From Bdellovibrionales bacterium RIFOXYD12_FULL_39_22 (GTDB lineage: Bacteria; Bdellovibrionota; Bacteriovoracia; Bacteriovoracales; Bacteriovoracaceae), in contig MEQL01000039.1 in NCBI GenBank assembly GCA_001770205.1, positions 74,787-138,786 on the forward strand: DNA of 64,000 bases, read 5' to 3'. Positions 1,971 to 60,380 of the stretch are shown one piece after another. A program made the translations under genes and the position numbers. Within the stretch, counting starts at the first letter, position 1; every line of letters starts with the position of its first letter. Below the pieces are notes generated by a model that did no database searches, had not been told where the DNA came from, and saw nothing but the letters and a program-made list of their open reading frames with translations.

Positions 1971-1981
1971 AGATATATTTT

Positions 1982-7984: not shown

Positions 7985-7993
7985 GGACAATAA

Positions 7994-9055: not shown

Positions 9056-9194
9056 CCCCTTTTATTTTTTTTGAAAAATCGCTTTTTTACTTACTAATTT
9101 GATTGCATATCAAAAATTTTACTTGATTTTTGCATGTCGAAATAATATATCAGACCCTCTAACACTAGGATGGGCCAATTAAGGGGTTATTAAA

Positions 9195-9425: not shown

Positions 9426-9510
9426 ATTCCTCCTTGCTCTTTTATGCTTTTGATTGCTAGAATCTAACGGCCGGAATCGAAATGATGCCGGACAAATTGG
9501 AGGCAATTAC

Positions 9511-23048: not shown

Positions 23049-23057
23049 ATTTTAAAA

Positions 23058-23282: not shown

Positions 23283-23338
23283 GCTAATCTCCTTCTGACA
23301 ATAGTATAGCATATTAACATATATGTGTCAATTATACT

Positions 23339-36777: not shown

Positions 36778-36803
36778 AAAAAATCCCCTCCCGTAATACT
36801 ATC

Positions 36804-40683: not shown

Positions 40684-40885
40684 CTGGCCAGCTCCCTATT
40701 TATTGGGCCCATTATAATTAGTGATAGCTATATGCAAGTAGAGCATAACACAATCAACTTGTTGATCTGACAACTTGATACTTTCTGCCCACTACAATGT
40801 AGGCCCAAAATAACTGATAATAATCTATGATGAGGCATTGGTGCGCTCATTTAAAAAGCTTTTTTGTCTTCTATCGGGTACAAAA

Positions 40886-43159: not shown

Positions 43160-45064
43160 TTACGCTGCTTTTTTAGTAATTTGCGTTTGAGTTTGTTCCG
43201 CTGTTAGTTGTGAAATATTTGCCACGCTTGCAGCACTAGGTCCACTACCCTCTAATTTAAAACGGCCAGATTTTTCATCATCGCGAAGTTGAGCAATAAA
43301 TAGTTTGCAAATTTCTTTGGCCTGTTGCACTTTTTCTGGTACCGGTCGATCTCTAAAGCGCTTAACTTGATCTGCCACGATAGTTTTACTCTTGCCCTCC
43401 GGCAAAAGGCCCATGATGATATCCGAGATCTGTGGAGGAAATCCAATTGCCAAAAGAAATTTGTCCTCTGGATTTAGATCGCGCAATACGCTGGCCAAAT
43501 GGCCTTTAGGAACTTGCAGCAACACCTTTGGAGTCCAAACTTGTTCACGCAGTTTTTTAGCAAAATCGGGAGAGATTGAAGCAATTTGATCAATAAACTG
43601 ATCATCCTCACCAAACTCTTTTTGTCCAATAAATTGGATGATCGGATTCATTACTACTTTATTTAAGTGAAGCTCATTATTCTCACCAGGATTATCTTTG
43701 AAAAAGGAAATCCACTCTACAATTTTTTTAGCATGCTCATTAATTTCTGCAATTCCAGGAATTTTATCCGCAATAATTGATTTCCACTGCGTGACAGAAA
43801 ATTGAGAGAGTAATGTTCTGTGCATACTAGGAGGAACAAAGTCCATAACAATTTTTTGAATAAGGCCGTTGTTCATCTTCTTGGCCACTTGCAATAATAT
43901 TTGCGGGTCGGCCAGTTTTAATTCTTTGACATATTCATCACGTATTAATTGTGAAAAATAATTACCTTTCTTCAAGCTATTGATGATTACTTTTTCAACA
44001 AATTCGCTAACCCATTTAGCAAAATCACCATCATTCATGGCCGCACTACTTTGCTCCATCTCCATCTGAGATAGTAATCCATCGTTTAGTGCTGACATTA
44101 AAATTTTCTCTTCATTATCCACTAACAGCGGAATTAACTTTTTCAATCCTTTAAGATCAGAGCTGCCACTGGTTATGCTGTTGGCCAGCGCCTCGGGCCG
44201 ATTCTTTATCGTTTTTCGAATAAGTTCAACTTTCTTTTCTACATCAATGTCTAATTGTATTGCTTCCGAAATAACTGTTTTATTTGCAGCGTCGATGCCA
44301 CCTGCGTGATCAAGTACAGGGTTTTCTTCTTTGGCCGCATTTTTATCTGTTACCGAATGTTCTTCTTTAAGATGCAGTTTTGCCGACTGTATAGATTCTG
44401 CAATAGAAGCAACTCCCGACTTCATAGCATTTGCCATAAAGAAAATACCTAAAAAAAGCATGCTGGCAATAATGACAGTGCCCAAGAATTTTAAAAATGA
44501 TGGCAGATGTTCATAAATGTGATCACTTAAAGTTTTAGGAAGAATAATCTCTTGTGGTTTAGGGGGTGGAATAGGGGCCTCCATCAGTGGAGGATCTGTT
44601 AACTTTGTAAAACGGACATCCATCTTTAGATCAGGATTGGTTGTCTTTATTAATTGCTTTAAATTATCCACCGCTTGATCTTTAACTTTGTCATAGACAA
44701 AGAGATCCACGCGCGCACCGGTTACCGTAAAGTAATCACCGGCCATCACCCCATCTCCTACACCTGGTACATAAAGGTATCCCGTATCAATTGAGTTACT
44801 GGACAAATTTTTTTCTGCCTTTAGTTTGCTGGAGAGAAGTTTAACAAATAAACTGTAGCGAACATCTCCCCCCAAATACATTTTGATGTGCCCATTGATA
44901 TCCGCAGTTAGTTCATTTTCAATTTCATTGATCCCTTTGGTATTAACTTTGCTTAGATTAAATTGCTTTGCCAACACCACTTCCGACAATATTAGCGACA
45001 TCATCGCTATTAGCGACAGCAGTAACTTGAAAATAAATGTGTTTTCCTTTCTACGTTGTTTCAT
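43160..45064 (-). CDS. putative natural FliF-FliG fusion-like rotor protein
   Basis: Signal peptide; FliF RBM3-like aa ~47-155; TM aa ~190-212; FliF C-helix-like LIRKTIKNRPEALANSI; FliG-N-like LKGLKKLIPLL; FliG-M-like LKLADPQILL; FliG-C-like aa ~491-604. Confidence 0.72.
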   Translation of the reverse strand: MKQRRKENTFIFKLLLSLIAMMSLILSEVVLAKQFNLSKVNTKGINEIENELTADINGHIKMYLGGDVRYSLFVKLLSSKLKAEKNLSSNSIDTGYLYVPGVGDGVMAGDYFTVTGARVDLFVYDKVKDQAVDNLKQLIKTTNPDLKMDVRFTKLTDPPLMEAPIPPPKPQEIILPKTLSDHIYEHLPSFLKFLGTVIIASMLFLGIFFMANAMKSGVASIAESIQSAKLHLKEEHSVTDKNAAKEENPVLDHAGGIDAANKTVISEAIQLDIDVEKKVELIRKTIKNRPEALANSITSGSSDLKGLKKLIPLLVDNEEKILMSALNDGLLSQMEMEQSSAAMNDGDFAKWVSEFVEKVIINSLKKGNYFSQLIRDEYVKELKLADPQILLQVAKKMNNGLIQKIVMDFVPPSMHRTLLSQFSVTQWKSIIADKIPGIAEINEHAKKIVEWISFFKDNPGENNELHLNKVVMNPIIQFIGQKEFGEDDQFIDQIASISPDFAKKLREQVWTPKVLLQVPKGHLASVLRDLNPEDKFLLAIGFPPQISDIIMGLLPEGKSKTIVADQVKRFRDRPVPEKVQQAKEICKLFIAQLRDDEKSGRFKLEGSGPSAASVANISQLTAEQTQTQITKKAA

Positions 45065-45708
45065 AAGTTAGAAAGTTTATTATTTACTGCCTCCAAAAAT
45101 CTAATCGTTGTTTCATCTTTCCCATCAATGGAAAGTGCGCGCAAAAGTTGTGCCCGAGCTTCGGGATATTTATTTTGATGATAATAGATATTACCCAGCA
45201 TAGTGTAGCTTGCCGCAACGTTGGGATATTTTTTTTGAAAATCAGTTATCTTGTTTTCGGCCAAGGGAAATTTTTGCAAAAATAAAAATCCCTGTATCTG
45301 CAGTAACTGTCGCAGCATCTCATTAGTTTCATCGCCATAGGTTTTTAGCACCCATTTTTCAAAATGATCAGGATTAAGTGGCGTAAGCTCCACGTTATAC
45401 AGGTCAATCCCGTTGACTAGCACTACTATTTCGCGTGGAACAAATCCAACTTTGGAAATCACAAAACTGACAATTCCATCTTTAGCAAATTTATCTAAGT
45501 CCTCTCCCGTTATTTTGAGAGGCGTGGCCCCCACAACTTCTCCCTTGGCAGTTACTACTTCTGCTCCTGCCGGATTTGATTCAATCAAAGCAAATTTTTT
45601 GGGAGGCAATGTTGTGAACACATAATTTTTAATTCGCTGATATGTCGCACATGAAGAAAACAGCATATTGGCCAGCAATAAAATAATCAAACTTAATTTT
45701 TTATTCAT
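45061..45708 (-). CDS. PEGA-domain + TPR lipoprotein
   Basis: Lipobox FSSC; IESNPAGAEV..GATPL..ISKVGF PEGA pattern; C-terminal TPR; ATGA overlap with the next gene. Confidence 0.82.
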   Translation of the reverse strand: MNKKLSLIILLLANMLFSSCATYQRIKNYVFTTLPPKKFALIESNPAGAEVVTAKGEVVGATPLKITGEDLDKFAKDGIVSFVISKVGFVPREIVVLVNGIDLYNVELTPLNPDHFEKWVLKTYGDETNEMLRQLLQIQGFLFLQKFPLAENKITDFQKKYPNVAASYTMLGNIYYHQNKYPEARAQLLRALSIDGKDETTIRFLEAVNNKLSNL

Positions 45709-45767
45709 CAACTTCAAAAGGTACGCTCCATTTGAGAGCAACTCCATTTACAACTATCTCAGTGTAG

Positions 45768-45794
45768 ATATCGGAGAAATTGAGTAATTCTTTA
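45768..45794 (-). promoter_or_regulatory. sigma-28 promoter of the PEGA-TPR / FliFG-like operon
   Basis: TAAA-N15-TCCGATAT; a further perfect -10 GCCGATAA at 45827-45834. Confidence 0.72.
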
Positions 45795-45911
45795 GAACTC
45801 GCACTATCTCACATCATTTTTATAGGTTATCGGCGGGATAATTAACCAGACTTTTTTGCTCAACTGGATAAAAAAATACCTCTGCACTTTTTTTGAGAAC
45901 CTTGTCAATAA

Positions 45912-46067
45912 CTAAACTGGAGAGGCAGAAGCAGCAGTAGACGCAGAAGTTCGCGGCCTTCGTTTGGCAGATGATTAGCTGTCGCAACCATAAATTGCAA
46001 TTAGAAATACTGTCACTACCGCTATTAAATAGGAACCCTTTTTCTTATCTACTTTGCAGACTATCAT
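45912..46067 (-). pseudogene. remnant of a lipoprotein gene (signal peptide only)
   Basis: MIVCKVDKKKGSYLIAVVTVFLIAIYGCDS* with IYGC lipobox and AAGGAG; stop two codons after Cys. Confidence 0.45.
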
Positions 46068-46088
46068 CTCCTTAATTTTCGTAAAATC

Positions 46089-49000
46089 TCACCAACTAAT
46101 GATCAGTCTACCGTTTGTATCCTTGTTACCAGCGGTGCCGCGATCTGGATCGGCAGCATTTCCTGGAGTAGTTCCGCTACCCGCAGTTTGCAATCCTCCC
46201 GGTGAAAAATAACTTGTTCCTGCCCCATTTATGGCGCCGCCACAATATCCACCGCCACCACCGGCCTCATCACCATCAAGAAAATCCATTGCATTTGCAC
46301 CATTTTGTATCCCGGCCGGAACGCAAGCACCGATTCCACCTCCAGCAACACCAGCGCCAAATGCCGTGGCCCCGCCTCCTCCACCTGCTTCTAAAATAAC
46401 CGCTCCACTCAAAGTTACAGAGGTAGATCCACCGCCTCCTCCCGTCACGCCACTCCAACAGCCAACTGCGCAATCTCCATAATCAATTCCATTTCCTCCA
46501 TTAGGCCATCCATAAACGGCACTGCCTGATCCGTAGTTTCCTCTTCCTCCAACGCGAAGTTGCAAAACATCTCCCAATAATACGTTTTGCGTTAAAGAGG
46601 CAAATCCTCCAGCTCCACCATCTACATTTGTTATAGTGCCATCATAGTCATCAATTGCTCCACCACCTCCGGCCCCCCACGCTTTAATTGTAACAGAATT
46701 ACAATTATTACCCATGATGACATATTTAATGGCACCCAGATAATCGATTATTTGATTGCCGGGAACGGTGCAATCAATTTCTGAATAATTAGGCATCGTA
46801 ATAGTCGCTGTTTTTCCGGAGCTGGTATAGCCCGTGTTAGCATCAAAGAGACAGACACGAACGTAGTAGGTTGTTGAAGAACTGAGATTATTCAGAGTAT
46901 AGTTTGTAGCGGCCGTCGAAATAGTTGTGCCCCCGCCACATTGTGCCGCCGGAAATCCCCCAGTCTGATATGCAACGATGTAGTTATCTTCAACTCCATC
47001 CCCTGAAGCGTCCCAATCGATAAGAATATCTTTGGGAGTTGGATTATTTGCTGTTATCGTCAAATTTTGCACGTCACTAGTTTGGCCGTAATTGCGGACA
47101 CACATTACGGTATAAACATAAGATACATTTTGGGTATATTCAGAAAAAGTTGAGGAAGTAGTTATCCAAGAAGCATAATATCTTAAAGAACCACTGGCAT
47201 TATCACTGGTCCAATGTGAGTGATTTGTGCTTACAAGTCCAAGAACCCCTCTATTTAAAAGTAGCGAGGCAAAATGGTTAGTGTTACTTGGATTTGGATT
47301 AGATCCTCCAGCTACGATCCAATCACTTCGGCCATTGCTAACTAAGGTATCACAATGAGCAGTTGCCGCAGAAAAGCTATATGCGCCGCCATAGTGTATC
47401 GCTGTTGGTGACGCACTATCTCTTGCAACAACCCATCCCGTCATAAACTTTATACCACCGCTGCAAATTTTTCCAGCAGGATCTGTAGAAAGACATTCAG
47501 CTTCCGGAGTAGTTTTAATTACCAACGCACCAGTACTAGTTGTATTGTTAGCAATATTTTTCCAACAAACTCTAAAATAATATGTAGTCAATCCAGCTAG
47601 TCCAAATACGTCGTAGTCTGTTGCCGAACTTGCAGAAATCGTCGCGCCGCCTGTGCAATTAACTGGAGGCGCTGAGCCTGCCGCATAAGAGATAATGTAT
47701 TCATCTTCTTCGCCTGCAACAGTGGGACCCCATTCAAGATGAATATCATTGGCGGTAGGGGCCATTGTGGAAGCAGTCAGAGTTTCTACTTCGCCGGCCA
47801 CGGTAAAACTTATAGTATCACTTGTGTCTACTCGATAACCATCATAAGCAAGAGGGGTACTGTCCATCGCAATTGTAACATCTCCAGGTTCTGTTACGTT
47901 AATCGTAGCATAACCAATCCCACCACTAAAGTGGACAACACCCAGGCCCGTGATATTCAAGGCAGTAGGGTTTTGTTCTAGCGTCACATCACCTTCAAAA
48001 TTAGTGTAAAGGCCACCATCAGAATCAATGGCCCGAAGCTGTAGTGTTACCTCTCCATACACCGCCGAGGCAATTGGCTGAAATTGAATAGATTCAATAT
48101 TTGCGTTACCAAAAGGTCTTATACAGCGAACCTTATACGAAGTATCCTTTCTTTCATATCTGTATGTACTTGCAGCATCAGTTACGTTTACTTGTCTGGC
48201 AGTATAGTTAGTGTTGTTTGTTGAACTCCAATAGTAAACACCATTAGTAGTTACCAATCCGACTGCCGCTGTTTTTCCTGCACTAACCAATGAGTTAAAG
48301 ACACCATCCGCTCCAACGAACTCCCCTCGGGCAGGGAGATACCAATTCCTAAATACTCCTGTTGCAACTAAATCATAACAGTAATTGGCGGCATTATGAT
48401 GCCCGTGAGAGTAGAGCGTTTGCGTATTAGCAAGGCCATTAACATCATCTGCTGGATCTCCTGAGAAGTTATAACCACCATACATATAAGTCGCATCTGC
48501 TAGCGAAATTACATGTGTGGCAGAGGCCTTCCATCCACCACCACAAGCAGTTCCGATTGCGTCGCTGGCAGTACAATCGGGTGGTTCCATAAAATCTACA
48601 TCCTTAACATCAGTCGTTGTTAACACTCTCCCTGTTCCGTCTTCTGTTCCATTAGAGAGCGACAGATTAACTGTTTCTATAATTGTATCGGTGATAGTAA
48701 TGATTCCACTACCATTCGTTATGGTGACAAGGCCTTCACCAGTGGAGAAACCATCAGCGATCAACGTTACTGTTCCAGAAAAAGCAAAATCTTTTAGTCC
48801 AGTAGAGGTTTGGGCCTCTACGAGTATAGTGGCATTTTGTGTGACATAAACATCAGTTGGTTCAATGATAACAAATTTACTGGCAGGCTCAGTGAAAATA
48901 TTAAAAGCACTTGAGGTGGTTGTAATGGCCGTGCTGCTGATAGTTGCCCGCAAAGTAAAACCAATTCCGGATTTATTGATTTGTAAATTATTAAAACTTG

Positions 49001-52000
49001 CAACTCCAGTGCTTCCCGTTGTTGCATTTAATGTTGTTGATAGCGTAGATGGAGATCCCGGAGCGTTAGGATCATTGGCCAAAGACATTACAATAGTGCT
49101 GCTTACATTAGTAGTAACGTTTTCGTATATATCATGAACAGCAACTTGAACAGCAGCATTAGCATCCCCCTCAATCGTTCCACCAATAACTTCATTTTGA
49201 GGTTGTGAGGTAAAATGCAAATGATTTGCTGCGGCCGGAATAATATTAAAAGTGGTGGCCGCCACTCCAGAAATTGCAGGATTGGCGCAGTTGGCACTCA
49301 AAGTATAGTTAGCACCGGCAGTATGCAAATTTACGTTGTAATTAACTATACCCGCAACGGCCGCAACAGTGGAAGAGGTCGATCCATTAAAGACGGCGAC
49401 CGGAGAAGTCAGCACTACCGAGCAGGTAAAAGTTGGGTCAACAATATTGGAAGCATTACGGGCCTCTACCCGAACCGCAAAATTTGTACCGGCCACCACA
49501 TTTGCTCCCGATGCGGGCATGATAGTGAAAACTAGATGCGTAGCTGGATCAGTGATTATATTGAAAAGATTTGAATCTTTGGTAATAGCGTTGAAGGTTG
49601 CTGTAAATTGATAACCAGTTCCAGGCATACTTAAATCAATATTATCAAAAGTGGCAATTCCACTCGACAATGTTCTAGGATTAGTTCCGTTTATCGTGGC
49701 AGTGCCTGGATTTAGTTTTAGTGACAAGGTAACATTGGCGCCATCATTGGCAGTTACTACGTTATGATACTGATCATGCAAGGTAACCGTAAATGGAGCA
49801 ATGTCAGTCAATACCTGCGTTGGACTTGCCACGTTTGCAAATTCTAGGTGGTGGGCCACATCAGTATAAATGGTAAAAGCATTTGAAGAAATCATTCCAT
49901 TATTAATTGGTGTTCCACCGATAGTAGCGGTTGCTCCTAAAGTATAAACTCCCGACAACCTAATTTGAGGCCGTGAATTGACGGCCAAATTATTAAAGAT
50001 GGCCTCACCATTAGCATTAGTAGTTTGAGTTAGATTATAAATAGTAGTACCTGGCCCAGAGTCAACTATTAGAGTTATTGTCTCCCCGGCGCGATATACT
50101 TTATTGCCGGCCCCGTCTTGAATCTCCACGACAATTCCTGAAATATCTTTACCTGCGGTGGCATCAGCTACGGTGGAAATAAAGGCCAATTTCGCAGGAT
50201 TTCCAGCGAGTATATCAAAGGCCTCACTTTCTGCGGTCTCTACTGCCCCAATCACCGGAAGTGTTGCCAATGCTTTTATGGTATAGTCAAGGCCGGTTAC
50301 GTTTACAGTAAACGCGCTGAAGCTGGCCAATCCATTAGTGGTCGAGACTTGATATCCGGAGTAATCAGCAGGCAACGACGCTCCCGTATTGTTGTCCACA
50401 AATTCCAAAGTAACTTGAATGGCGGCGTGACTCTCTACGCGGTTATTTCCCTCATCTTGGATTTCAATGATGATAGGTGGATTCATATTAACACCAACAT
50501 CTTCATCTACAGGAGGTTGTTGGTAGATCACTATGTGGTGAGGATTTCCGTAATCAATATTAAAGAGCGTTGAAGTTCCAGATACATTGTAAATACCAAC
50601 CAAGGCGCTTGCGGTTAAACGATAGCCCACTCCTTTTTTATCAAGCGAAATTCCAGCAATGCTGGCAGCTCCCAGTAAAGTGGTATCGGCCGGAGCGGCC
50701 GGAGAAAGTGTCGCTCCTGCAGGATTGGTAGTTAATGACAGAGTTACGTTATTCCCCGTGGAGCTACTTACCACGTTTTCATATTGATCTCTAATTTCCA
50801 CCGCCACGGTGAAATTCTCTTTTGCTTTTGCGTTAGGAGAACTCGGTGGATTTTGTGTAAAGGTAATGTGGTGTGGAATATTATGCGTAACATTAAAAGT
50901 GCTAGTAGTATCTACGGAAAGAATCGTTCCGGCATTGTAGCTGGCCTTTAACTTATAATTAGTATCAGCTTTTTGCACAACAAAGTTACTAAAGGTGGCA
51001 ACATTAGTCGAGCCATCAAAAATTATCTGCGTTGTTCCTAAGCCGGTAGCACCATTTAGATGCACCAACTGCAAGGCCAGGGACGCACCAGAAAGCGCCG
51101 TAGCATTGGCCGGATTATCATCTCCATCCAGGACTCGCACCGTCACGGTACGAATAGCAACGCCCGCGGTAGCATCTGCGGCGCTTTGTAAAAGCACTTC
51201 ATCGATGGCCACTTTAGCGGGGCCTCCTCCTAAAATTTCAAAAGCAGAAGAGGTTTGGGCAGCAGCAGCAGCGTTAGGAAGTGCTCCGGCCAAATCGCCG
51301 GTGGCCGTAAAAACATAACCATTAAAAGCTTTATTTATACTAGTGGTAGAAAAAGTAGCTACTCCACTAGCATTAGTAGAAGCCGTAGCGTTAGTTATTA
51401 CCGCCGCAACCGGCTGGCCGGTAGCTGCAAAAGAGAGAGTTGCCGTTATTCCACTTTGGGCAACACTATTTCCAAACGCATCGACGGCCTGAACTGTAAA
51501 GGTGGCCATTGCAATATTAGATACTGTTTGCAAGGGAGGTTGCGCTACAAAGGCCAGATGATCTGCTCCGGCGGCAATAATTTTAAATCCGCTAGAAAGT
51601 GCTACTTTCCCTGGATTAGTAATGGTTGGAGCGGCAACAATATTGGTGGCCGTTGCATTTAAAGTGTATTCATCGAGGGCCTTGCTAATTTTCTCAATGA
51701 AAAGCGAGTTAAAAGTGGCAGTACCATTTATGGTATTTACCACCAAAGAGTCTGTAGTTTTTAAAACAGCGTTGGCGCTAATTGAAGCATCATGGGCCAG
51801 CGAAATAGTTATCTCTACGCCATTGCTATTAGTTTTATTACCGTATTGGTCACGCACTTCTACTGTGACGGCCGGAGCAATATCAACGCCGGCCACGGTA
51901 TCGTTGCCATCTTCATCAGGTTGAACTTTAAAAGCGATAGATACGGGATTGGCCGGAATTACATCAAACCCTGCGGCCGCTGACTGGGCAGCACCTAAGA

Positions 52001-54353
52001 TAATATCTGGACGGCCAGGAACCGATCCCGTTGCTTGCAACTGATAGTTTGCACCGGCCAAAGTGATAAATTGGTTGCTAAAAGTAGCAATCCCGCCTAC
52101 CGCACTTACGGTTAAGGTCGTCGCTGTTTGTAGTGGGCCTCCCGCTCCGTTTATTGCACTAAGGGTAATAGAAGTGTTGCTACCCACTCCTGTGTCAACC
52201 AAAAAGCCTCCGGCATCTACCACCTTAACTTGAATGGAATTTCCGCTACCATCTTGGATAGTTGCTCCGGCCACCGTTGGATCGGCCGGTTGATTAACAA
52301 ACTCAAAATGGTGAGGAATGCCGGTGACAATTTTAAAAGAACTAGAGGCAACGCTGCTTCCCAAACAAGAATGAGAAGCATCAAAAACGAAAGTTCCTGG
52401 TTGATTTACTGTGATGGCAGTAAAATCAGAAAGTCCGGCCACTGCGGGAATCACTCCACCAGTCAGCACAGCACCTGCGGCCGGATTAAGTGCTAGCGAG
52501 ATATCGGCCACCGCACAAGCAGTGGAAGTGATGTTATTGTCATACTGATCGCGCAAGGCCACAGAAACCTTCGTCATAGTATTTAGTACACCTGTTTCTG
52601 CGGGAGGTTGCGAGGTAAAGGTTAATTTGTTCGGATCATTGTGAATAATATCAAAAAGCTCTGTATTATCGATCGTCAAAGCAGTAGTGTTAACAGAGGC
52701 ACTTGCCTTAAGTTTATAATTAACATTGGCGGTTCTGATTTTTAAATCTGAAAAAGTTGCTACTCCCACAGCAGTTTGAGCGGAGACACTTCCGTAGACT
52801 GTGGCAGTAGGTGAGCCAGTAGCAAAACTCAATGCTACATTAACGCCATCGTTCGTACATTTATTGCCATACTGATCGCGTAACTCCACTTGCAAATTAG
52901 CACCTAAAACAGAAACGATCTGTTCACCGGCCTTGATTTTATTACCAGCGACATTTTTTGGATCATTCAAAAAAACCAGTTTTTTAGGTTCACCCGGGAT
53001 AATGGCAAAAAGATCACTCAGTTCAATTTCGCTTGGATCGAGCGCCGGAGAAGAAAATTTCATTTGATAACCACTGGCCACTTTATCAATATTAAAATCA
53101 AAAGTAGCAATTCCGGCCACTGCATTTTTTTGCCTGCTGCCTGTTAACACCGCGGTGTTACCAGAAGCATCATGCTCCCACCCCATCTCAACAAGTGCAG
53201 TGCTATTCACAAATTGCATGTTAGCATCAAGCAGGCGAATTTTTATTTGAATATTATCGCCAGCATATATAGCAGGGGGAGGAACTGGCATAGCAGGAAA
53301 AGCGCGAACAATTTCCATATAGACGGGAATTCCACCATAGAACCAAACATCCTGTTTACTACTAACATCGATATCGTTGGGTGGATTATCGTCAAAACGA
53401 GAAAGTGAGAGTCGTACTATTTGAGAAGTTAAATCATTAACATCGACGAAGGCCTTACCATCGGTAAAAGTTAATTCTTTAACTTTCGTTCCAGCACTAT
53501 TGTCAACATAAGCAAAACCATTTACATGAAAATTAACTTTCCCTGGATAGTAAGGAACAACATTGTTATCTTCATCCTCTACCTGAATAGTAACGGTGGT
53601 AGCATGGCCAACCTCACTATCTTTAGGATCAACAATTCGGAAGTGATCAGGTTTTTTTACCGCCACCACATTAACTCGAATACTTCCTGGATCTAGGGCG
53701 TCACCATAATCAATTAGAGTAAGCTGCTCTAAGACGATATCGCGAAAGTAAATGGCCTTCTCACTATATCCTTGTTGAATTAGCGCCTGATTAAAGGCTG
53801 GAATGGTACAGGCCGCATCTTTGTAGAAAACTCCACTACCATATCCCGTGGCATTAACACGAATGGTATTTCTAGCTGGAACTTTATTTCCGTAGTGATC
53901 AAGAGAAGTCACTTTAAAAGCGGCGCACTCTCCCTCATAAACGGTGGACGGGCCCTCCCAACCTAACATCTGCGGATAAGGATCTAGAATTTTAACTTTT
54001 GCGGAGGCCACCGCACCTTTAGCATCTTTTACTTTTACGGTGATAATTGAAGAGACATTAGGAATAACAAACTCTCCGCTAGAGAGTTGAGTTACTTCTA
54101 TAGGTTGTTTATTTTCATCTTCCATAGAAAAAACATATTGAGGAGATCCTCCCGTAGCATAAAACTTCTTAACTTGTCCGACGTTTACTTCAAAATCATA
54201 TCCCGCACCACTGCTGCTGCCTTTTATTATTTTGAGAGGTTCTCCTCTCTCGATAATTTCTTTTACATCTTTGTTTAAACATCCAGCTGTAGTAAAAAGC
54301 AAAATGAGCAGCAGGAAATTTAACAGCAACTTGGACAAAGATAATGTTTTCAT
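46089..54353 (-). CDS. giant Ig-like repeat lipoprotein (2754 aa) with DUF1566/Lcl-like, FN3-like and Gly-rich C-terminal domains
   Basis: Lipobox TAGC; roughly 16 repeats with a D(Q)xGN motif; NYC..WYLPARGE..YWSST..VRCIR; YYFRVC and YYVRVC FN3-like ends; IKAWGAGGGG. Confidence 0.88.
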   Translation of the reverse strand: MKTLSLSKLLLNFLLLILLFTTAGCLNKDVKEIIERGEPLKIIKGSSSGAGYDFEVNVGQVKKFYATGGSPQYVFSMEDENKQPIEVTQLSSGEFVIPNVSSIITVKVKDAKGAVASAKVKILDPYPQMLGWEGPSTVYEGECAAFKVTSLDHYGNKVPARNTIRVNATGYGSGVFYKDAACTIPAFNQALIQQGYSEKAIYFRDIVLEQLTLIDYGDALDPGSIRVNVVAVKKPDHFRIVDPKDSEVGHATTVTIQVEDEDNNVVPYYPGKVNFHVNGFAYVDNSAGTKVKELTFTDGKAFVDVNDLTSQIVRLSLSRFDDNPPNDIDVSSKQDVWFYGGIPVYMEIVRAFPAMPVPPPAIYAGDNIQIKIRLLDANMQFVNSTALVEMGWEHDASGNTAVLTGSRQKNAVAGIATFDFNIDKVASGYQMKFSSPALDPSEIELSDLFAIIPGEPKKLVFLNDPKNVAGNKIKAGEQIVSVLGANLQVELRDQYGNKCTNDGVNVALSFATGSPTATVYGSVSAQTAVGVATFSDLKIRTANVNYKLKASASVNTTALTIDNTELFDIIHNDPNKLTFTSQPPAETGVLNTMTKVSVALRDQYDNNITSTACAVADISLALNPAAGAVLTGGVIPAVAGLSDFTAITVNQPGTFVFDASHSCLGSSVASSSFKIVTGIPHHFEFVNQPADPTVAGATIQDGSGNSIQVKVVDAGGFLVDTGVGSNTSITLSAINGAGGPLQTATTLTVSAVGGIATFSNQFITLAGANYQLQATGSVPGRPDIILGAAQSAAAGFDVIPANPVSIAFKVQPDEDGNDTVAGVDIAPAVTVEVRDQYGNKTNSNGVEITISLAHDASISANAVLKTTDSLVVNTINGTATFNSLFIEKISKALDEYTLNATATNIVAAPTITNPGKVALSSGFKIIAAGADHLAFVAQPPLQTVSNIAMATFTVQAVDAFGNSVAQSGITATLSFAATGQPVAAVITNATASTNASGVATFSTTSINKAFNGYVFTATGDLAGALPNAAAAAQTSSAFEILGGGPAKVAIDEVLLQSAADATAGVAIRTVTVRVLDGDDNPANATALSGASLALQLVHLNGATGLGTTQIIFDGSTNVATFSNFVVQKADTNYKLKASYNAGTILSVDTTSTFNVTHNIPHHITFTQNPPSSPNAKAKENFTVAVEIRDQYENVVSSSTGNNVTLSLTTNPAGATLSPAAPADTTLLGAASIAGISLDKKGVGYRLTASALVGIYNVSGTSTLFNIDYGNPHHIVIYQQPPVDEDVGVNMNPPIIIEIQDEGNNRVESHAAIQVTLEFVDNNTGASLPADYSGYQVSTTNGLASFSAFTVNVTGLDYTIKALATLPVIGAVETAESEAFDILAGNPAKLAFISTVADATAGKDISGIVVEIQDGAGNKVYRAGETITLIVDSGPGTTIYNLTQTTNANGEAIFNNLAVNSRPQIRLSGVYTLGATATIGGTPINNGMISSNAFTIYTDVAHHLEFANVASPTQVLTDIAPFTVTLHDQYHNVVTANDGANVTLSLKLNPGTATINGTNPRTLSSGIATFDNIDLSMPGTGYQFTATFNAITKDSNLFNIITDPATHLVFTIMPASGANVVAGTNFAVRVEARNASNIVDPTFTCSVVLTSPVAVFNGSTSSTVAAVAGIVNYNVNLHTAGANYTLSANCANPAISGVAATTFNIIPAAANHLHFTSQPQNEVIGGTIEGDANAAVQVAVHDIYENVTTNVSSTIVMSLANDPNAPGSPSTLSTTLNATTGSTGVASFNNLQINKSGIGFTLRATISSTAITTTSSAFNIFTEPASKFVIIEPTDVYVTQNATILVEAQTSTGLKDFAFSGTVTLIADGFSTGEGLVTITNGSGIITITDTIIETVNLSLSNGTEDGTGRVLTTTDVKDVDFMEPPDCTASDAIGTACGGGWKASATHVISLADATYMYGGYNFSGDPADDVNGLANTQTLYSHGHHNAANYCYDLVATGVFRNWYLPARGEFVGADGVFNSLVSAGKTAAVGLVTTNGVYYWSSTNNTNYTARQVNVTDAASTYRYERKDTSYKVRCIRPFGNANIESIQFQPIASAVYGEVTLQLRAIDSDGGLYTNFEGDVTLEQNPTALNITGLGVVHFSGGIGYATINVTEPGDVTIAMDSTPLAYDGYRVDTSDTISFTVAGEVETLTASTMAPTANDIHLEWGPTVAGEEDEYIISYAAGSAPPVNCTGGATISASSATDYDVFGLAGLTTYYFRVCWKNIANNTTSTGALVIKTTPEAECLSTDPAGKICSGGIKFMTGWVVARDSASPTAIHYGGAYSFSAATAHCDTLVSNGRSDWIVAGGSNPNPSNTNHFASLLLNRGVLGLVSTNHSHWTSDNASGSLRYYASWITTSSTFSEYTQNVSYVYTVMCVRNYGQTSDVQNLTITANNPTPKDILIDWDASGDGVEDNYIVAYQTGGFPAAQCGGGTTISTAATNYTLNNLSSSTTYYVRVCLFDANTGYTSSGKTATITMPNYSEIDCTVPGNQIIDYLGAIKYVIMGNNCNSVTIKAWGAGGGGAIDDYDGTITNVDGGAGGFASLTQNVLLGDVLQLRVGGRGNYGSGSAVYGWPNGGNGIDYGDCAVGCWSGVTGGGGGSTSVTLSGAVILEAGGGGGATAFGAGVAGGGIGACVPAGIQNGANAMDFLDGDEAGGGGGYCGGAINGAGTSYFSPGGLQTAGSGTTPGNAADPDRGTAGNKDTNGRLIISW

Positions 54354-54375
54354 AAAAAATCCCTCGTTATGCCCT

Positions 54376-57300
54376 CTATGGAATTACACACCGATATCCA
54401 ACATTGGAATAAGCAAAAGTAGGATCAAAATTTCCCACACTCGCTGAAAAAATCCCAACATCAGTTTCGGTAGCACTATCCCATGATAGGCCACGTACCA
54501 TTCCTTCCAATCCCATTCCGTTATAAAGTAAAGTTCCATAATTATGATTATTCGAATCATTACTGCCAGGACCAAAATTTGCCATATCATTTGTATGCGC
54601 TAATAAAATATTTTTGATGGCAATATTTCCTGCGGCATCAAATGTTAAACTGGAGCGATTAGTAGAAACCCAGCTAACAGTATTTCCTGAAAAATCCCAA
54701 ATTATGGCACCACTTTTAAGAGTATGCGTTCTTCGATTTACATGCCATACACTATCAGAACAGATGGCCGTACTAGCGCGAGAGTCAGTATATCCAGCAC
54801 ATGGACTATAATCATCGGAAGCGGCCAAGCGAGAATTCGGGGCCAAAGAATTTGAATGGCCACGATTTACCGAACCCGAACCTATCGCGATGCTCCAATT
54901 AGAGGCAACAGCGATAATTTCTCTGGCCACGGTTTGCCATTCATTATTAGTAACTAGGTGTCCTCCCAGCGCCACACATGCCGCACTAGCATCGGCCCGG
55001 TTGATGTTAATTTTCGGCAAACTATTTTTGGTCGAGCCGCCAGCACTGTCCATCTGATATTTGGAAATACAAAATGGGCCATCTTGCACATAAACAAATC
55101 CCTCTTCCGCACAATCATTGATCACCAATAATTTGGGAGCAGATAGACTTACCACATTAGATCCACCTGGAATGCTCATAGAGAGTGAAACAATTTCTGC
55201 GACAGCACCGGTAACGTTGAAAGTCGCAATCCCACTATCAATTCCATTATCCACAATTGTAACGTCAGAGCTATCATCCACCAAATCTATATCATACCCA
55301 GTATCGTTATCTGCAAAAGTATTAATATTTCCATATTGGTCACGCGCCTCTACTCGAACAATGGTGGCAACATTAGGAATAGTATCAGTGGGTTTTAATA
55401 AAACAAAATTGGTAACACTAGCGGCCAAAAACTGAGTATTATCTGAAGAAGAGTTTCCTGCGATGGCACAACTACCACCACCAGGAAGAGTTAGCGTGTA
55501 TTGAACTGTCTCTGCCTTTTCATTGTAAATTTTTACTCGCCCCTCTCCGTTCACAAATGTTACAACGTTTCCTTGAGAGAAAGATGAATTATTACTATCA
55601 TCAGTTATAACAATTCCCGAGTTACAGTTAACGGAAGTAACGACGTTGACCCCAGTAGCATCAACGGCCTTTATTACCACTTCCGCACTATTATTTCCTG
55701 CAGCAACAGTGGTCGGTGCTTCTATAGTGTAATGATCAAGGCCGCCAGCGGTGAATGCCACTGTATTATTTTCCAGAATCGTTACACCGGATGCCAGATC
55801 TGGATTAGACAATACAAGATTGACTGTTTCGGCCACTGAATCAGTTAGTTGACAGGCGGCCGCACCACTTTGCCCATCCACAATAGCTAGAATTCCAGAA
55901 CACCCAACTGCCGCCGAGCCAGTTGTGGCAATCGAAACGCTACCGCTGTGTCCAAAAACACGATTTCCAAAATGATCTTGGGCCTGTACTAAAATATTAG
56001 CAGTTCCATTAACGGCAACATCCGCATGATTTAAAACAACATATTTTTCTATTTCACCAAAAAAGAATTCTACACTTTGCGCTGCTCCACCGTCATCATA
56101 AGTTAACACCCCGGTATTTACGATGGCCAGCTCAACCACTTCCGCTATATTGTTGTTTATTTCAATGGAGCCCAGGCCGCCAACTATACTGACATCCATA
56201 CTTCCAGAAGTTGCTTCGGCGGAATCATTTCCATCACTAAATTGCAATTGCACTACAATATCGTGGGCCACGGGATTGTTATTACCATCTACAGTAATAA
56301 TTTCGATAGTGGTAGGAGTTCCGGCCGTAGAGTCCGTTATAGTTTTAAAAATAACTTTTTCAACGACATCAGAAGAGAAATTTATTATTTCAGTATCACT
56401 TAGATCACTGATCGTTCCTTCAGCAAAATCAGTCCTCTCCAACGAAATAGTAACTTGCTCCGCAATCAAATTGCTTACGTTAATGGAACCATACCCATTG
56501 GTTATAGTCACCGTACCGTCTCCGGCCACCGCAGCATTGCCCGTGGCCGCCAATCTAACAGTACCGCTATATGAAGCGGCCACTGCATTAGTGGCATCCC
56601 GTGCCTGAATTTGAATTCCATGTCCTGTAGGCCCAACAGTAATAGAGCCGGAAATTGGCACTATGTAAAATTTAGTGGCCACTCCCGAAGTAATCATTTC
56701 TAGGAGGTGGGTGCCATTGGATAATCCATCAGTGGCGGCCACAAACTCAATAGGAGCTCCCTCCAGTACATTGTTTTTGTAATAAAGAGGTTGATCCGTA
56801 TCACCTTCTGATAGTTCGAACTGATTATTATCAAGTGCTATGGAGCAGTTGAGATCAGAATAAAAGGCCCCCAAAGAAGCACCGGTTAATGTGATGGTGC
56901 GGGCATCTGATCTTCTGGCGTTATTGCCAAATTTATCGATAGTGTGAATGGTGAATTCCTGACAGTCAGAGGTCAACACCTCGGCCGGCCCATTTATTTG
57001 TAACTGATAAGGTTCAAGACTAATTACATTGATGGTGGCATAAGCAGAGTGGCCCGCAGAATCTTGCACCAAAATTTTTACTGCTCCGGCGGTTGTTCCT
57101 GCAGTATAAAATCCCGATTTAAGCCCAATGTTTCCAGCACCGGAGACAACGGTATAACGATATGGTGCTTTTCCACCTTCGGTAAAAAACTGAACGTTGT
57201 CTTCAACTTCTAGATTACTGACCACTTCCGGATCGATGATAAGTGCTGGATAAACTACTGCGGGTTCTTTGACTTTCATTTCAACGCAACCACCAACAAA

Positions 57301-57378
57301 CAACAGTTGCATCATGATCAACACCACCATAGGAATGGCAAGAAGCTGTTTTATTAATGCTTTAGAAGAGGTAGTCAT
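54376..57378 (-). CDS. Ig-like repeat lipoprotein with C-terminal FGE-sulfatase/C-type lectin fold
   Basis: Lipobox VGGC; about 6 DxxGN repeats; FCISKYQM..ACVALGGHLVTNNEWQ..IWDFSGN..GYRC; likely start ATG 57378. Confidence 0.85.
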   Translation of the reverse strand: MTTSSKALIKQLLAIPMVVLIMMQLLFVGGCVEMKVKEPAVVYPALIIDPEVVSNLEVEDNVQFFTEGGKAPYRYTVVSGAGNIGLKSGFYTAGTTAGAVKILVQDSAGHSAYATINVISLEPYQLQINGPAEVLTSDCQEFTIHTIDKFGNNARRSDARTITLTGASLGAFYSDLNCSIALDNNQFELSEGDTDQPLYYKNNVLEGAPIEFVAATDGLSNGTHLLEMITSGVATKFYIVPISGSITVGPTGHGIQIQARDATNAVAASYSGTVRLAATGNAAVAGDGTVTITNGYGSINVSNLIAEQVTISLERTDFAEGTISDLSDTEIINFSSDVVEKVIFKTITDSTAGTPTTIEIITVDGNNNPVAHDIVVQLQFSDGNDSAEATSGSMDVSIVGGLGSIEINNNIAEVVELAIVNTGVLTYDDGGAAQSVEFFFGEIEKYVVLNHADVAVNGTANILVQAQDHFGNRVFGHSGSVSIATTGSAAVGCSGILAIVDGQSGAAACQLTDSVAETVNLVLSNPDLASGVTILENNTVAFTAGGLDHYTIEAPTTVAAGNNSAEVVIKAVDATGVNVVTSVNCNSGIVITDDSNNSSFSQGNVVTFVNGEGRVKIYNEKAETVQYTLTLPGGGSCAIAGNSSSDNTQFLAASVTNFVLLKPTDTIPNVATIVRVEARDQYGNINTFADNDTGYDIDLVDDSSDVTIVDNGIDSGIATFNVTGAVAEIVSLSMSIPGGSNVVSLSAPKLLVINDCAEEGFVYVQDGPFCISKYQMDSAGGSTKNSLPKININRADASAACVALGGHLVTNNEWQTVAREIIAVASNWSIAIGSGSVNRGHSNSLAPNSRLAASDDYSPCAGYTDSRASTAICSDSVWHVNRRTHTLKSGAIIWDFSGNTVSWVSTNRSSLTFDAAGNIAIKNILLAHTNDMANFGPGSNDSNNHNYGTLLYNGMGLEGMVRGLSWDSATETDVGIFSASVGNFDPTFAYSNVGYRCVIP

Positions 57379-57554
57379 AAATATACCTTTCTCGTCGGTT
57401 AATTCACTTAAAAACATTATACCCGAGAAGGCAGCAATATTTGCTTTTACAAACCATCTACTAAAATTCAACAACTTGACCTATAGGGGCCATGTAGTAA
57501 TAATTATTTAGATGGCAAAAAAGTGCCAATGTTCTTAGGTGCCCCCTTTGTAGT

Positions 57555-57581
57555 TACAATTTTTAGCTAATTGCCCGATAT
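57555..57581 (+). promoter_or_regulatory. sigma-28-like promoter upstream of motA
   Basis: TACA-N15-CCCGATAT. Confidence 0.5.
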
Positions 57582-57646
57582 GACATAACAACAGCGTAAC
57601 AAACAAGATAACCTGCGCAATCTATGGAATTTAATGGAGAAAAAAG

Positions 57647-58432
57647 ATGAATTTATCACTGCCTTTTGGCCTTTTTATGGGTGCTGGAATCATAATTTGG
57701 GCAATTGTTCAAGAGATCAGCAACCCCATGATTTTTACCAATGTTCATGCGATAGCTATCGTCATTGGGGGAACTACCGCTGCGGCCATGGTCTGTTTTC
57801 CCTTTAAACACATACTCAGCATTATGCGCATTATGTTCAAGGCCAGTACTGGTGGCTTTCAAAAAGAGACCATCGGAACCATCAATGAAATTGTAGAACT
57901 TTCACAAATGATGGTGGAAGACAAACCACTTGAAGAGGCAATTGCTAAAGTTCGCAGTCCCTTTTTGCGTGAATCTTTGCAACTAGCGGTAGATGGAACT
58001 ATTCCGGATAATGAATTGGAGGCCGTACTTTTTAAGCGAGTGGAAATTCAAAATGAAAAATACAAACAAGAAGGAATTACTTACAAAATCATTGGTAAAT
58101 TTCCACCGGCCTTTGGACTAATTGGAACCACGCTGGGAATGATATCTCTTCTACAAGGATTGGGAGGCGAATCAGCTTTTGAAAAACTAGGCCCGGCGAT
58201 GTCAGTTTCTTTGACCGCTACCTTTTATGGCCTCGTAGTGGCAAATCTTTTTTTAATTCCCATTGGTGAAAACCTCTCCTTTGCTTCTCAACACGATCTA
58301 ACTCGTCGAAGAATTATCGTAGAAGGTGTCATGCTTTTAAAACATCGAAAACATCCTCTGATCGTGGAAGAGTGTTTAAAAAGTTATCTTTCCCCCGCGG
58401 ATCGAAATCAGATGAAGAAAGTAGATATTTGA
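57647..58432 (+). CDS. motA: MotA/PomA-family stator subunit
   Basis: IVIGGT, PFLRESLQLAVDG, PAFGLIGTTLG, ATFYG...NLFLIP. Confidence 0.93.
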   Translation: MNLSLPFGLFMGAGIIIWAIVQEISNPMIFTNVHAIAIVIGGTTAAAMVCFPFKHILSIMRIMFKASTGGFQKETIGTINEIVELSQMMVEDKPLEEAIAKVRSPFLRESLQLAVDGTIPDNELEAVLFKRVEIQNEKYKQEGITYKIIGKFPPAFGLIGTTLGMISLLQGLGGESAFEKLGPAMSVSLTATFYGLVVANLFLIPIGENLSFASQHDLTRRRIIVEGVMLLKHRKHPLIVEECLKSYLSPADRNQMKKVDI

Positions 58433-58480
58433 TAAATTTTTCACCATATCTGGCCTTTGATGGGCATAGAAAAATTTAAA

Positions 58481-58520
58481 GAAGATTAGAAGATTAGGAA
58501 ATTAGAGGATTAGAGGATTA
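58481..58520. repeat. 5 x 8-bp tandem repeat between motA and motB
   Basis: GAAGATTA GAAGATTA GGAAATTA GAGGATTA GAGGATTA. Confidence 0.85.
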
Positions 58521-58550
58521 ATGAAAAAGGAAGAAAAAGGATAATATGTT

Positions 58551-59303
58551 ATGGGATCAATTTTAGGAGGAAATAATAAAAAAGGCGAAAATATTCCCAA
58601 GCGGTATGAGTTCAAATCAAGTCCGGTGGAAGTTCATGATGATGGAGAAGGAAATTGGCTTGTTTCATATGCCGACATGATGACACTGCTGTGGGGGTTC
58701 TTTGTAATTATAACCATTTTTTCTACTCCCGACGCTTCTAAATTTGAAAAACTAAAAGAGCATACTTCCCAGGCCATGGGAGGAACATACCAGCGGCCGC
58801 TCAATGAATTAACGGAAGAATTAGAACAAGTTTTTGCCGAGATGAATATCAATCAAGATATCCGAATAGAAAATTTAATTGACGGTATAAAATTAACCGC
58901 TAGCTCCACTCGTTTTTTTGCCTCGGGAGATGCTAGTCTTTCTACGGAATCAAAATCTATTTTGGAAAATATTGGAAAAATTTTTCAGGATAGGGCCCAG
59001 GGTTATAAAATAATAATCGAAGGACATACAGACGATGTACCCATCAACACGAAAGAGTTTCCTAGTAACTGGGAGTTGTCATTGCGCCGATCAAGCGAAG
59101 TGGTGAGACTTTTTGAAAACATGGGAATTCCTCATGCAGATTTGCGGCCAGTGGGCCTATCCGATATTGAGCCAATGAAAGAGATCAGCGGATTATCCGG
59201 AGATAAACTTCGAGATGCTCGTGCGCAAAATAGACGAATTGTAATCCGAATTCAAAAACAGATTAAGGCCATTAAAGCACCAGTTAAAACAGAGAAAATT
59301 TAA
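58551..59303 (+). CDS. motB: MotB/PomB-family stator subunit
   Basis: WLVSYADMMTLL with the conserved Asp; OmpA-like EGHTD, NWELS..RS and NRRIVI. Confidence 0.94.
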   Translation: MGSILGGNNKKGENIPKRYEFKSSPVEVHDDGEGNWLVSYADMMTLLWGFFVIITIFSTPDASKFEKLKEHTSQAMGGTYQRPLNELTEELEQVFAEMNINQDIRIENLIDGIKLTASSTRFFASGDASLSTESKSILENIGKIFQDRAQGYKIIIEGHTDDVPINTKEFPSNWELSLRRSSEVVRLFENMGIPHADLRPVGLSDIEPMKEISGLSGDKLRDARAQNRRIVIRIQKQIKAIKAPVKTEKI

Positions 59304-59370: not shown

Positions 59371-59997
59371 TCATTCGTCGTTGGCATCATTGGCAACCGC
59401 TGCACCCGCATCAACTGCCGCTGATTCTTTGATAATTTTTTGATGATCGATGGAAAAAGTGTTACTTGATTCTCCCTCCCCTGCTCCAATATTTCCAATC
59501 GCCTCGGCCGCAAATGTTTGGCCAATACTTCCGTCAGTGGTATTAACCGTTGCTTCGTCACCTAAATCGTCCGCCACCTTGGGAGCAGTTCCTCCGGCAG
59601 TTTTTCCGGCGCTGAACGCCAAATGTCCATCACCAGCAGCCCCATCCGTTGCACACAAAGTCTCTCCTGTACCAGCATTTGTATCGGCGGCCTGATTGGC
59701 CACCGCAGCATTTGCTCCAAAACCGATAGCATAATAGCGGCCGGAGGCCGGGCCAGGATTAAATCCCATGTGAAACAAACAAGTAGCATAGTTGTCATAA
59801 TCAGAATAAAAACCAGACTCCGCCATATACAAGGATGAAAGCTGTGTTTTTGCCTCCGTTTTCCGGGCCTTAACTTGATATTTTTGAAAGTTAGGAACTG
59901 CCACCATACTTAAAACACCAATGATTGCAACAACCGCCATCAACTCAACGAGTGTAAAGCCAGCAATCCCACTAATCATTTTTTTCCAGCTTTTCAT
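59371..59997 (-). CDS. pilA: type IVa major pilin
   Basis: G|FTLVELMAVVAIIGVLSMVAVPNFQKYQVKARKTEAK; ATG 59997 after AAGGAG. Confidence 0.88.
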   Translation of the reverse strand: MKSWKKMISGIAGFTLVELMAVVAIIGVLSMVAVPNFQKYQVKARKTEAKTQLSSLYMAESGFYSDYDNYATCLFHMGFNPGPASGRYYAIGFGANAAVANQAADTNAGTGETLCATDGAAGDGHLAFSAGKTAGGTAPKVADDLGDEATVNTTDGSIGQTFAAEAIGNIGAGEGESSNTFSIDHQKIIKESAAVDAGAAVANDANDE

Positions 59998-60380
59998 AAT
60001 ATAAACTCCTTTTAAAATGCGCCCACCACACTGAACAATTGCTAAAATTGTAGCAGAAAAAATAAAAATCAAAACAACTTCTTTGCTTTTTGTTTTATAT
60101 TTTAATTAGTTGTCCACCATCGCAATAAAATTGTTAAAAAAAAGAGTGACAATTATCCGAGGCAATTACTTAACTCAACTACTAGCTAGTGGTCCCCAAT
60201 AAATCCAAATATCAAAATGCCTCTTTTTATGGACAGGGCCCACTCGTTAGGTATCACCCAAAAACAAAAGTTTAAGTGTAGATCTCAGATAAAAAGAATC
60301 TTTTTGTGTTAATGGTAGTAAATTATAAGTGAACCATAAAATTTAAAAAAGTCAGATTATGAGTTACGATGGAGGAAAAT

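Follow-up and report, generated by a model that had tools for sequence, protein, structure and literature searches.

A conserved Bdellovibrionota locus with a FliF/FliG-like fusion protein and motAB: a candidate envelope module from the flagellar motor core

The window analysed here is a stretch of 64,000 nt from Bdellovibrionales bacterium RIFOXYD12_FULL_39_22 (assembly GCA_001770205.1, contig MEQL01000039.1, positions 74,787-138,786, forward strand). Its locus at 43160..59303 encodes a 634-aa protein resembling a fusion of FliF and FliG, a tetratricopeptide repeat (TPR) lipoprotein, two giant repeat lipoproteins and a motAB pair. The module to which the locus belongs is real and conserved. 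On balance, the locus is probably a copy of a conserved envelope module from the torque-generating core of the flagellum, in which a ring of fusion subunits would be served by its own MotAB and linked by the lipoprotein to the outer membrane. To our knowledge, FliG and MotAB work together only inside the flagellum. Genes were called from the listing of open reading frames (ORFs) and from Pfam scans, and the features of the locus were as follows.

43160-45064, minus strand: 634-aa FliF-like/FliG-like fusion protein (profile, structure model, fold comparison)
45061-45747, likely start 45708, minus strand: TPR lipoprotein with a PEGA-like beta-sandwich (lipobox Cys, TPR families, model)
45768..45855, minus strand: pair of sigma-28-like promoter elements, located upstream of the lipoprotein-fusion operon (pattern matches only)
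46089-54353, minus strand: 2754-aa repeat lipoprotein (lipobox TAGC, fn3, tandem repeats)
54376-57474 (ORF), likely start 57378, minus strand: 1000-aa lipoprotein (lipobox VGGC, FGE-sulfatase-like domain)
57574..57581, plus strand: weak sigma-28-like -10 element CCCGATAT, 66 bp upstream of motA (pattern match)
57647-58432, plus strand: motA, flagellar type (MotA_ExbB above the Pfam cut-off)
58551-59303, plus strand: motB (MotB_plug and OmpA above the Pfam cut-offs)
38779..40683, minus strand: PAS-PP2C (SpoIIE-type) phosphatase, found repeatedly beside the module (Pfam)

The motAB pair was divergent from the minus-strand fusion, lipoprotein and giant genes, with the giants situated between the two halves of the module. 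The stop of the lipoprotein gene overlapped the start of the fusion gene by 4 bases, and a gap of 341 bp with promoter-like elements of its own lay between the giants and the lipoprotein-fusion operon. All genes named by an initial annotation of this DNA were found in the ORF list and Pfam scans where it had placed them, and the distance of about 33 kb that it gave to the flg cluster (flgF to fliW, 176-10098) was correct. It had also described the locus as devoid of rod, hook, export-gate, fliM and fliN genes, in agreement with the Pfam scan, in which no member of these families was found among ORFs of at least 100 aa between 38.7 and 64 kb. The arrangement of the locus genes is not due to chance, since the same neighbours recur at 28 other loci.

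In the 634-aa protein, Pfam detected no family above cut-off and no match to FliG_M or FliG_N. FliG_C scored 15.5 bits (E = 0.022; cut-off 23.3) over profile positions 2-106 of 108, while YscJ_FliF, representing RBM1 and RBM2, gave no match even at E = 10. An exhaustive HMMER search yielded 106 cluster representatives of the fusion family, mostly of 560-650 aa and matching end to end. A profile of 59 family members matched the solved full-length FliG of Aquifex (E = 7.3e-7), and a profile from 21 locus copies matched the FliG of the window's own genome (E = 3.6e-8); when the family was compared by hhalign with this one sequence, the match was weak (probability 26%, E = 7e-4). FliG_C and MgtE_N were matched by 25 and 10 of the 59 members, respectively (E < 0.1), and several relatives passed the Pfam cut-off for FliG_C, with, for example, 47.5, 43 and 41.7 bits.

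The AlphaFold (AF2) model of the fusion protein (pLDDT 83.2) comprised an N-terminal transmembrane (TM) helix, a periplasmic part of about 150 aa with a single alpha-beta-beta-alpha-beta unit (residues 41-158), a second TM helix, a disordered linker and about 340 residues of helical repeats, with the cytoplasmic FliG-like N/M/C part spanning about 300-605. Hydropathy peaks and the model placed TM1 at about 7-34 and TM2 at about 187-216, flanking the periplasmic region. The seven best Foldseek matches (E of 0.001 or lower) were all FliG, the top ones full-length, with probability 1.00. In VIA comparisons, residues 300-613 were superposed on Salmonella FliG 3-331 (Z 12.7, 282 aligned), residues 509-602 on Thermotoga FliG_C 1qc7 (Z 11.0, rmsd 2.4 Å, 89 of 89), and residues 41-158 on the RBM3/S-ring of Vibrio and Salmonella FliF (Z 9.0-10.7, rmsd 2.5-3.8 Å, 88-94 aligned; rmsd 3.1 Å for the match at Z 10.7). 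The FliF RBM3 matches stood just above OsmC-like folds (Z 9.3 or less); because this margin is small and the fold is common, the protein is called FliF-like for its fold, topology and context and not for its sequence. As modelled, it unites a complete FliG-like part with a FliF cut down to the RBM3-like domain, and its description in the initial annotation as a FliF-FliG-like fusion was borne out by the family profile, Foldseek and VIA comparisons.

At the position that HMMER aligned to the FliG torque helix, a conserved helix P-E-G-x-x-K/R-T-I-V-x-D-x-V-x-K/R was present, with P555, E556, G557, K560, D565 and R569 as the corresponding residues of the 634-aa protein. D565 aligned with the D289-equivalent of FliG (E. 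coli numbering as given in PMC12505986). Among the 59 members, conservation was 51/59 for P555, 56/59 for G557, 54/59 for K/R560, 57/59 for D/E565 and 48/59 for K/R569. The EHPQ motif was found in none of the 59 but was present in the genome's own FliG; EHPQR of the FliG middle domain is the FliM-binding motif, and the FliG-like part thus appears to have lost the FliM link. All 59 members ended in two small residues (AA 34, AS 13, VA 9, AG 2, VS 1; window 43163-43168), which recall C-terminal degradation tags. Small stand-alone FliG_C-only proteins of about 140-170 aa were common in the scanned genomes (up to about 119 bits), one being located in the window's genome (contig C4, 54537-54968; 55 bits), and in several genomes a FliG_C domain also occurred in proteins of about 790 aa.

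The MotA of the window scored 67.3 bits with MotA_ExbB and aligned from end to end with flagellar MotA (E = 1.4e-36) and PomA (E = 2.9e-28) sequences of solved structure; the matched solved sequences were MotA or PomA, not ExbB/TolQ, in 10 of 10 cases. MotB possessed a plug (MotB_plug, 48.2 bits; cut-off 24), an OmpA-type peptidoglycan-binding domain (OmpA, 53.9 bits; cut-off 27.2) and the conserved membrane-helix Asp (YADMMTLL, with YAD aligned to solved MotB). These features identified the pair as flagellar type, as initially annotated. The columns equivalent to R90 and E98 were too variable among the module MotAs for complementary charge changes to be weighed.

In five complete or near-complete genomes, module-adjacent MotAs shared 38-44% identity with the window MotA, compared with 26-30% for one or two others per genome; the four non-module MotAs inspected were all encoded in a conserved gene order peculiar to them. 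When 27 MotAs were placed in a maximum-likelihood tree, a module-linked group (87/85) was separate from the syntenic non-module lineage (94/95); one non-module MotA from the window's genome formed a long basal branch of the module group. Three full modules, each with its own motAB, were present in genome G355 in addition to a fourth, non-module motAB, and the complete genome G136, with three motB genes, had a single module-linked pair. The pattern fits a stator lineage that would have been inherited with the module.

The modelled lipoprotein (pLDDT 90.7) consisted of a beta-sandwich followed by three TPRs, and Foldseek matched it to TPR domains of the peptide-binding type and to transthyretin-like/CnaB sandwiches. 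It had been annotated as a PEGA-TPR lipoprotein: the TPRs and the lipobox were confirmed, while PEGA was not called by Pfam in the window copy but was called in homologs (E = 5e-5 and 6e-7), and the beta-sandwich of the window model is PEGA-like.

To assess conservation, 401 genomes of the same phylum were scanned with the family profile, and 40 of them contained a match with E no higher than 1e-10. Twenty-eight loci were compared, 20 around full-length matches, several of which were cut by contig ends, and 8 around weak N-terminal-only matches, with ORFs clustered by all-against-all BLAST; the proteins at the latter eight loci were diverged full-length relatives (hhalign probability 96%). The families recurring at these loci were as follows.

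Lipoprotein beside the fusion gene: 15/20 full-length loci; 8/8 distant loci
Barrel of about 200 aa with a signal peptide: 13/20 full-length loci; 2/8 distant loci
MotA beside the fusion gene: 12/20 full-length loci; 6/8 distant loci
MotB beside the fusion gene: 11/20 full-length loci; 6/8 distant loci
fn3 lipoprotein family, 1385-1966 aa: 9/20 full-length loci; not scored at distant loci

The barrel was called from OMP_b-brl in 2 of 4 scanned members and from signal peptides. The fusion protein is co-inherited with the flagellar-type MotA/MotB pair and the PEGA-like/TPR lipoprotein, and at most of the other loci with the small barrel as well. Conservation of the neighbourhood, which the initial annotation had proposed as a check, thus held at 28 other loci of Bdellovibrionota. 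Close relatives of one fusion-type protein were found in Bdellovibrio bacteriovorus strains (99% and 86% identity) and in metagenome-assembled genomes of Bdellovibrionales and Bdellovibrionota, and the fusion protein of G136 was 99% identical to a protein in a B. bacteriovorus record. Clusters of similar length with FliG_C, FliG_M and sometimes YscJ_FliF_C in the ESM Atlas, which serve as leads only, came most commonly from Bdellovibrionota, Myxococcota, Balneolota, Elusimicrobiota, Pseudomonadota and others. A search of nucleotide contigs with a 5-row alignment of the fusion family detected no related locus. Beyond the core genes, motB was followed at three loci (L045, L048 and L051) by genes for a GGDEF diguanylate cyclase and for a conserved protein of about 250-290 aa, which hints at cyclic-di-GMP control of the module.

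Profile searches of the window's genome located a canonical fliG and a canonical fliF (568-aa frame) on the contig of the window, about 65 kb upstream of it, as well as flhA and several further flagellar-type motAB pairs elsewhere. Because these canonical genes and other pairs exist, the locus harbors neither the only FliF/FliG nor the only MotAB of the genome, either of which would have refuted the initial annotation. Profiles built from the loci further revealed three diverged copies of the module in this genome.

Contig C55, 60212-75981 (L070): lipoprotein, 738-aa fusion relative (hhalign 96.6%, E = 5e-10), barrel, 3965-aa protein without Pfam match
Contig C23, 27686-32067 (L069): lipoprotein, 657-aa fusion relative (hhalign 88%, E = 2.8e-6), motBA
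Contig C31, 60097-68616 (L071): lipoprotein, barrel, 1235-aa NHL/PKD protein, 588-aa protein (N-terminal similarity only, 70%), motBA

The 2754-aa lipoprotein combined tandem repeats of about 110 aa, at least 10 in number, with two DUF1566/Lcl_C-like modules that were each succeeded by fn3; its C-terminal domain was rich in glycine (fn3, E = 8.7e-14; Lcl_C, E = 2.6e-6, below cut-off). Repeats were shared with the lipoprotein of about 1000 aa (phmmer E = 6e-24), which carried a C-terminal FGE-sulfatase-like domain of C-type-lectin fold (E = 3.9e-4, below cut-off) ending in GYRCVIP. Of the earlier labels "Ig-repeat" and "lectin-tipped", the lipoprotein nature and the repeats stood, and the Ig and lectin identities are plausible, with sub-threshold matches behind them. 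Counting the window, ORFs of at least 1000 aa occurred at 17 of 29 loci versus 22% of random 17-kb windows of the window's genome, an enrichment to be taken as an indication and not a test because related genomes are not independent. One giant fn3 lipoprotein family (1385-1966 aa when full-length) was present at 9 of the 20 full-length loci, and a GFRC-type lectin-like motif ended the giants of four loci, including those of the window. That the giants form one cargo family was rejected, the window giants showing no similarity to those of other loci at a phmmer E of 1e-3. Near one of the G355 modules (L055, 15333-19505, minus strand), a protein of 1390 aa was encoded whose C-terminal domain, Peptidase_S74 (endosialidase chaperone), is typical of fibre proteins.

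Two sigma-28-like elements were observed upstream of the lipoprotein-fusion operon, AAAGTCT-N13-GCCGATAA with the -10 at 45834-45827 and TAAA-N16-CCGATAT with the -10 at 45774-45768, both on the minus strand. Elements of the type TCAA-N15/16-CCGATA were located just upstream of the lipoprotein gene at five other loci, and CCGATA fell within -200 to +60 of the lipoprotein gene start at 6 of 27 loci, the window included, versus 5.6% of random 260-nt windows. Upstream of motA, CCGATA was present at 3 of 19 loci, and the CCCGATAT element of the window had no convincing -35 element. The same GCCGATAA occurred at 5876-5883 (plus strand), 43 bp upstream of a flgN-like gene (5926-6483), as expected for a sigma-28 promoter, and was used as an informal positive example for the pattern. 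Across the window, sigma-28-like -10 patterns were not above chance (9 versus 6.1 expected), and scans for sigma-70 promoters and terminators gave counts at chance level.

If the module works as proposed, the fusion protein would oligomerise through its RBM into an inner-membrane ring with a FliG-like ring on the cytoplasmic face; FliF itself assembles a ring of about 34 subunits. Peptidoglycan-anchored, ion-driven MotA5B2 would then push on the charged helix (K/R560, D565, K/R569), by which the ring would be turned or strained, and the periplasmic ring would relay this movement or force to the outer membrane via the TPR lipoprotein and, at loci that have one, the barrel. In the most speculative step, this output would export, display or move the adjoining giant lectin-tipped lipoproteins in the attack phase of the predator. 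Coupling to the giants, which the initial annotation pictured as being moved, displayed or retracted, is plausible, being suggested by their recurrence, and is the weakest link of the scheme. The proposal can be extended to an autonomous rotary engine, independent of the flagellum and with a MotAB lineage of its own, that drives giant lectin-tipped lipoproteins through the PEGA/TPR lipoprotein and the barrel; in this extended form it is tentative and somewhat unlikely.

Several observations weigh against a flagellum-derived envelope module at this locus. The fusion protein has Gly at the column of E. coli FliG R281, the window MotA lacks Arg at the R90-equivalent column, and no outer-membrane barrel gene is present in the window locus. 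At L042-L044, which belong to one family, the fusion gene was accompanied by neither the lipoprotein nor MotA, and giants belonged to different families at different loci, with none at 12 of 29. In the MotA tree, a protein of the window's genome encoded on contig C7, 2.8 kb from the contig end and with no module seen beside it, nested inside the module group. Each of the three motAB pairs of B. bacteriovorus was reportedly found by Morehouse and colleagues in 2011 to contribute to swimming. Sigma-28-like elements stand upstream of the lipoprotein-fusion operon, as they do with late flagellar genes; in Bdellovibrio, such promoters mark attack-phase genes in general and would, on that account, not be specific to the flagellum. 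Finally, non-flagellated carriers, the search for which had been suggested initially, were not found among the 40 carrier genomes, all of which had flagellar genes (canonical FliG in 39, FliF and FlhA in G155), and independence from the flagellum is therefore not readable from the phyletic pattern.

With all carriers flagellated and sigma-28-like promoters upstream of the operon, a flagellum-linked role is possible. The locus would then be a flagellar accessory or stator regulator, acting as an extra ring, as a place where stators of a second type dock or are stored, or as a membrane decoy that withholds stators, with the giants as unrelated neighbours. The flagellar type of the MotAB and the recurrence of GGDEF and PP2C regulators beside the module are in keeping with such a role, as is G136, where one of three motB genes lies in the module and the fusion is the one nearly identical to a B. 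bacteriovorus protein. In PMC11323537, moreover, all Bdellovibrio motAB pairs are taken as flagellar stators. An accessory role nevertheless appears unlikely given genomes with as many as three or four modules and a motAB for each, the outer-membrane partners and giant-lipoprotein enrichment, and a lineage of module MotAs distinct from the syntenic non-module pair; the 1:1 fusion of a complete FliG-like N/M/C part with a domain that builds rings also suits a rotor and not a decoy.

The same genes could alternatively serve a force transducer or export machine without sustained rotation, in which MotAB energises the ring, as in ExbBD-TonB or GldLM-type IX secretion, to insert, export or expose the giants. 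Such a machine would accord with the lipoprotein, barrel and giant lipoprotein genes adjoining the module, the TPR domain of the peptide-end-binding kind, and a locus with no rod or other axle gene. Present data do not separate transduction from rotation, but the retained torque-helix charges and the RBM3-like ring domain are features of a turning rotor and the window locus has no barrel, so that this alternative is considered quite improbable. There is a somewhat less than even chance, on the other hand, that the motor module is real and its adjacency to the two giants of the window incidental: these giants match none from other loci at a phmmer E of 1e-3, the 341-bp gap sets them apart from the operon, the lipoprotein-fusion pair of the related genome G351 (L054) has neither a giant nor motAB within 19.9 kb, and more than a fifth of random windows in this genome hold an ORF of such size (the 22% given above). 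Against coincidence stand the giant ORFs at 17 of 29 loci, the single family at 9 of 20, the GFRC-type ends at four loci and the position of the window giants between the two halves of the module.

Compared with the flagellar motor core (FliF MS-ring, FliG and MotA5B2/PomAB), the module is similar in its RBM3-like fold between two TM helices, its FliG-like N/M/C armadillo domains with a charged C-terminal helix, its flagellar-type MotA, and its MotB with plug, Asp and peptidoglycan-binding domain. It differs in being built on one membrane-anchored polypeptide instead of two, FliG being soluble and encoded with fliF, fliM and fliN. The fusion is without RBM1 and RBM2 and has only a loop of about 29 residues at the place where FliF bears its beta-collar; unlike flagellar FliG, it has no EHPQ and is not accompanied by fliM, fliN, export-gate, rod or hook genes. 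Its partners are instead the PEGA/TPR lipoprotein, an outer-membrane barrel and giant lipoproteins, in a genome that has a separate canonical set.

A natural FliF-FliG fusion of Chlamydiaceae, as described in Bergeron 2016 (PMC4768692), has about 330 aa, with RBM2, one further RBM-like region and the FliG middle domain only, is given no MotAB partner there and was proposed to act in the injectisome. Both proteins are naturally fused, cut-down FliFs with a FliG-like cytoplasmic domain outside a complete flagellum, whereas the module protein has 634 aa, one RBM3-like domain, a full FliG-like part and a motAB partner. Engineered or spontaneous FliF-FliG fusions of Salmonella and Vibrio reportedly show that a 1:1 fusion can assemble rings, but consist of full-length FliF inside the flagellum and are not natural stand-alone genes. 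GldLM of the type IX secretion system (T9SS) with SprB and Agl-Glt with CglB are ion-driven inner-membrane motors that move surface adhesins, with motors of GldL or TolQR/ExbBD type and no FliG- or FliF-like rotor. The module resembles them in an ion-driven motor encoded with TPR/periplasmic proteins, small barrels and large adhesins or lipoproteins, and differs in its flagellar-type stator, which would face a FliG-like ring and whose MotA matches only MotA/PomA among solved chains. The initial annotation did not recognise the arrangement as a described system, and full-text literature searches, which did not extend to subscription journals, yielded no account of a FliF/FliG-like fusion accompanied by motAB outside the flagellum. 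The available portion of a phylogenetic study of MotAB and its non-flagellar relatives (PMC12505986) likewise mentions no such rotor.

Homologs of the PAS-PP2C phosphatase adjoined the module at L054, L055, L056, L061, L062, L065 and L081, and this protein is possibly a regulator of the module. It is preceded at 33697-38621 (minus strand) by two FHA-domain proteins, one of which also matched the cytoplasmic-domain family of YscD, a type III secretion system ring protein; as they recurred at no other locus, their membership of the module was rejected. Convergent with the fusion gene, 40838-43138 (plus strand) encodes a 766-aa protein with only a weak DUF2202 match, which has a homolog beside the lipoprotein-fusion pair of G351 (L054) and a paralog on contig C38. 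Directly after motB lay genes at 59371-60072 (minus strand), 60369-61448 (plus strand) and 61458-63998 (plus strand, continuing beyond the window end), including those for a pilin-like protein, which matched N_methyl at 21.7 bits and ComP_DUS and Pilin_PilA weakly, and for a protein of more than 847 aa with a weak N-terminal methylation motif that runs off the window; they may be type IV pilin or pseudopilin genes. Farther away, a PIN-domain protein and a Fic/DOC protein were encoded at 22653-24487 (minus strand), between arginine-biosynthesis genes and a pst-phoU-phoBR block.

If the proposed reading is true, a conserved multi-copy module that keeps the torque core alone, has partners in the outer membrane and lacks both axle and export apparatus would be a second use of the flagellar rotor and stator and would offer a minimal, genetically tractable rotor for torque studies. 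The module also bears on the evolutionary assembly of the flagellar motor. An autonomous engine, if it exists, would join GldLM and Agl-Glt as a third class of motor that drives adhesins, one that predatory Bdellovibrionota would use for gliding, prey capture or surface display and that related phyla might carry. For Bdellovibrio, the "extra" motAB pairs counted as flagellar stators would, under the proposed reading, deserve a second look, and the module could explain unaccounted parts of gliding or prey attachment.

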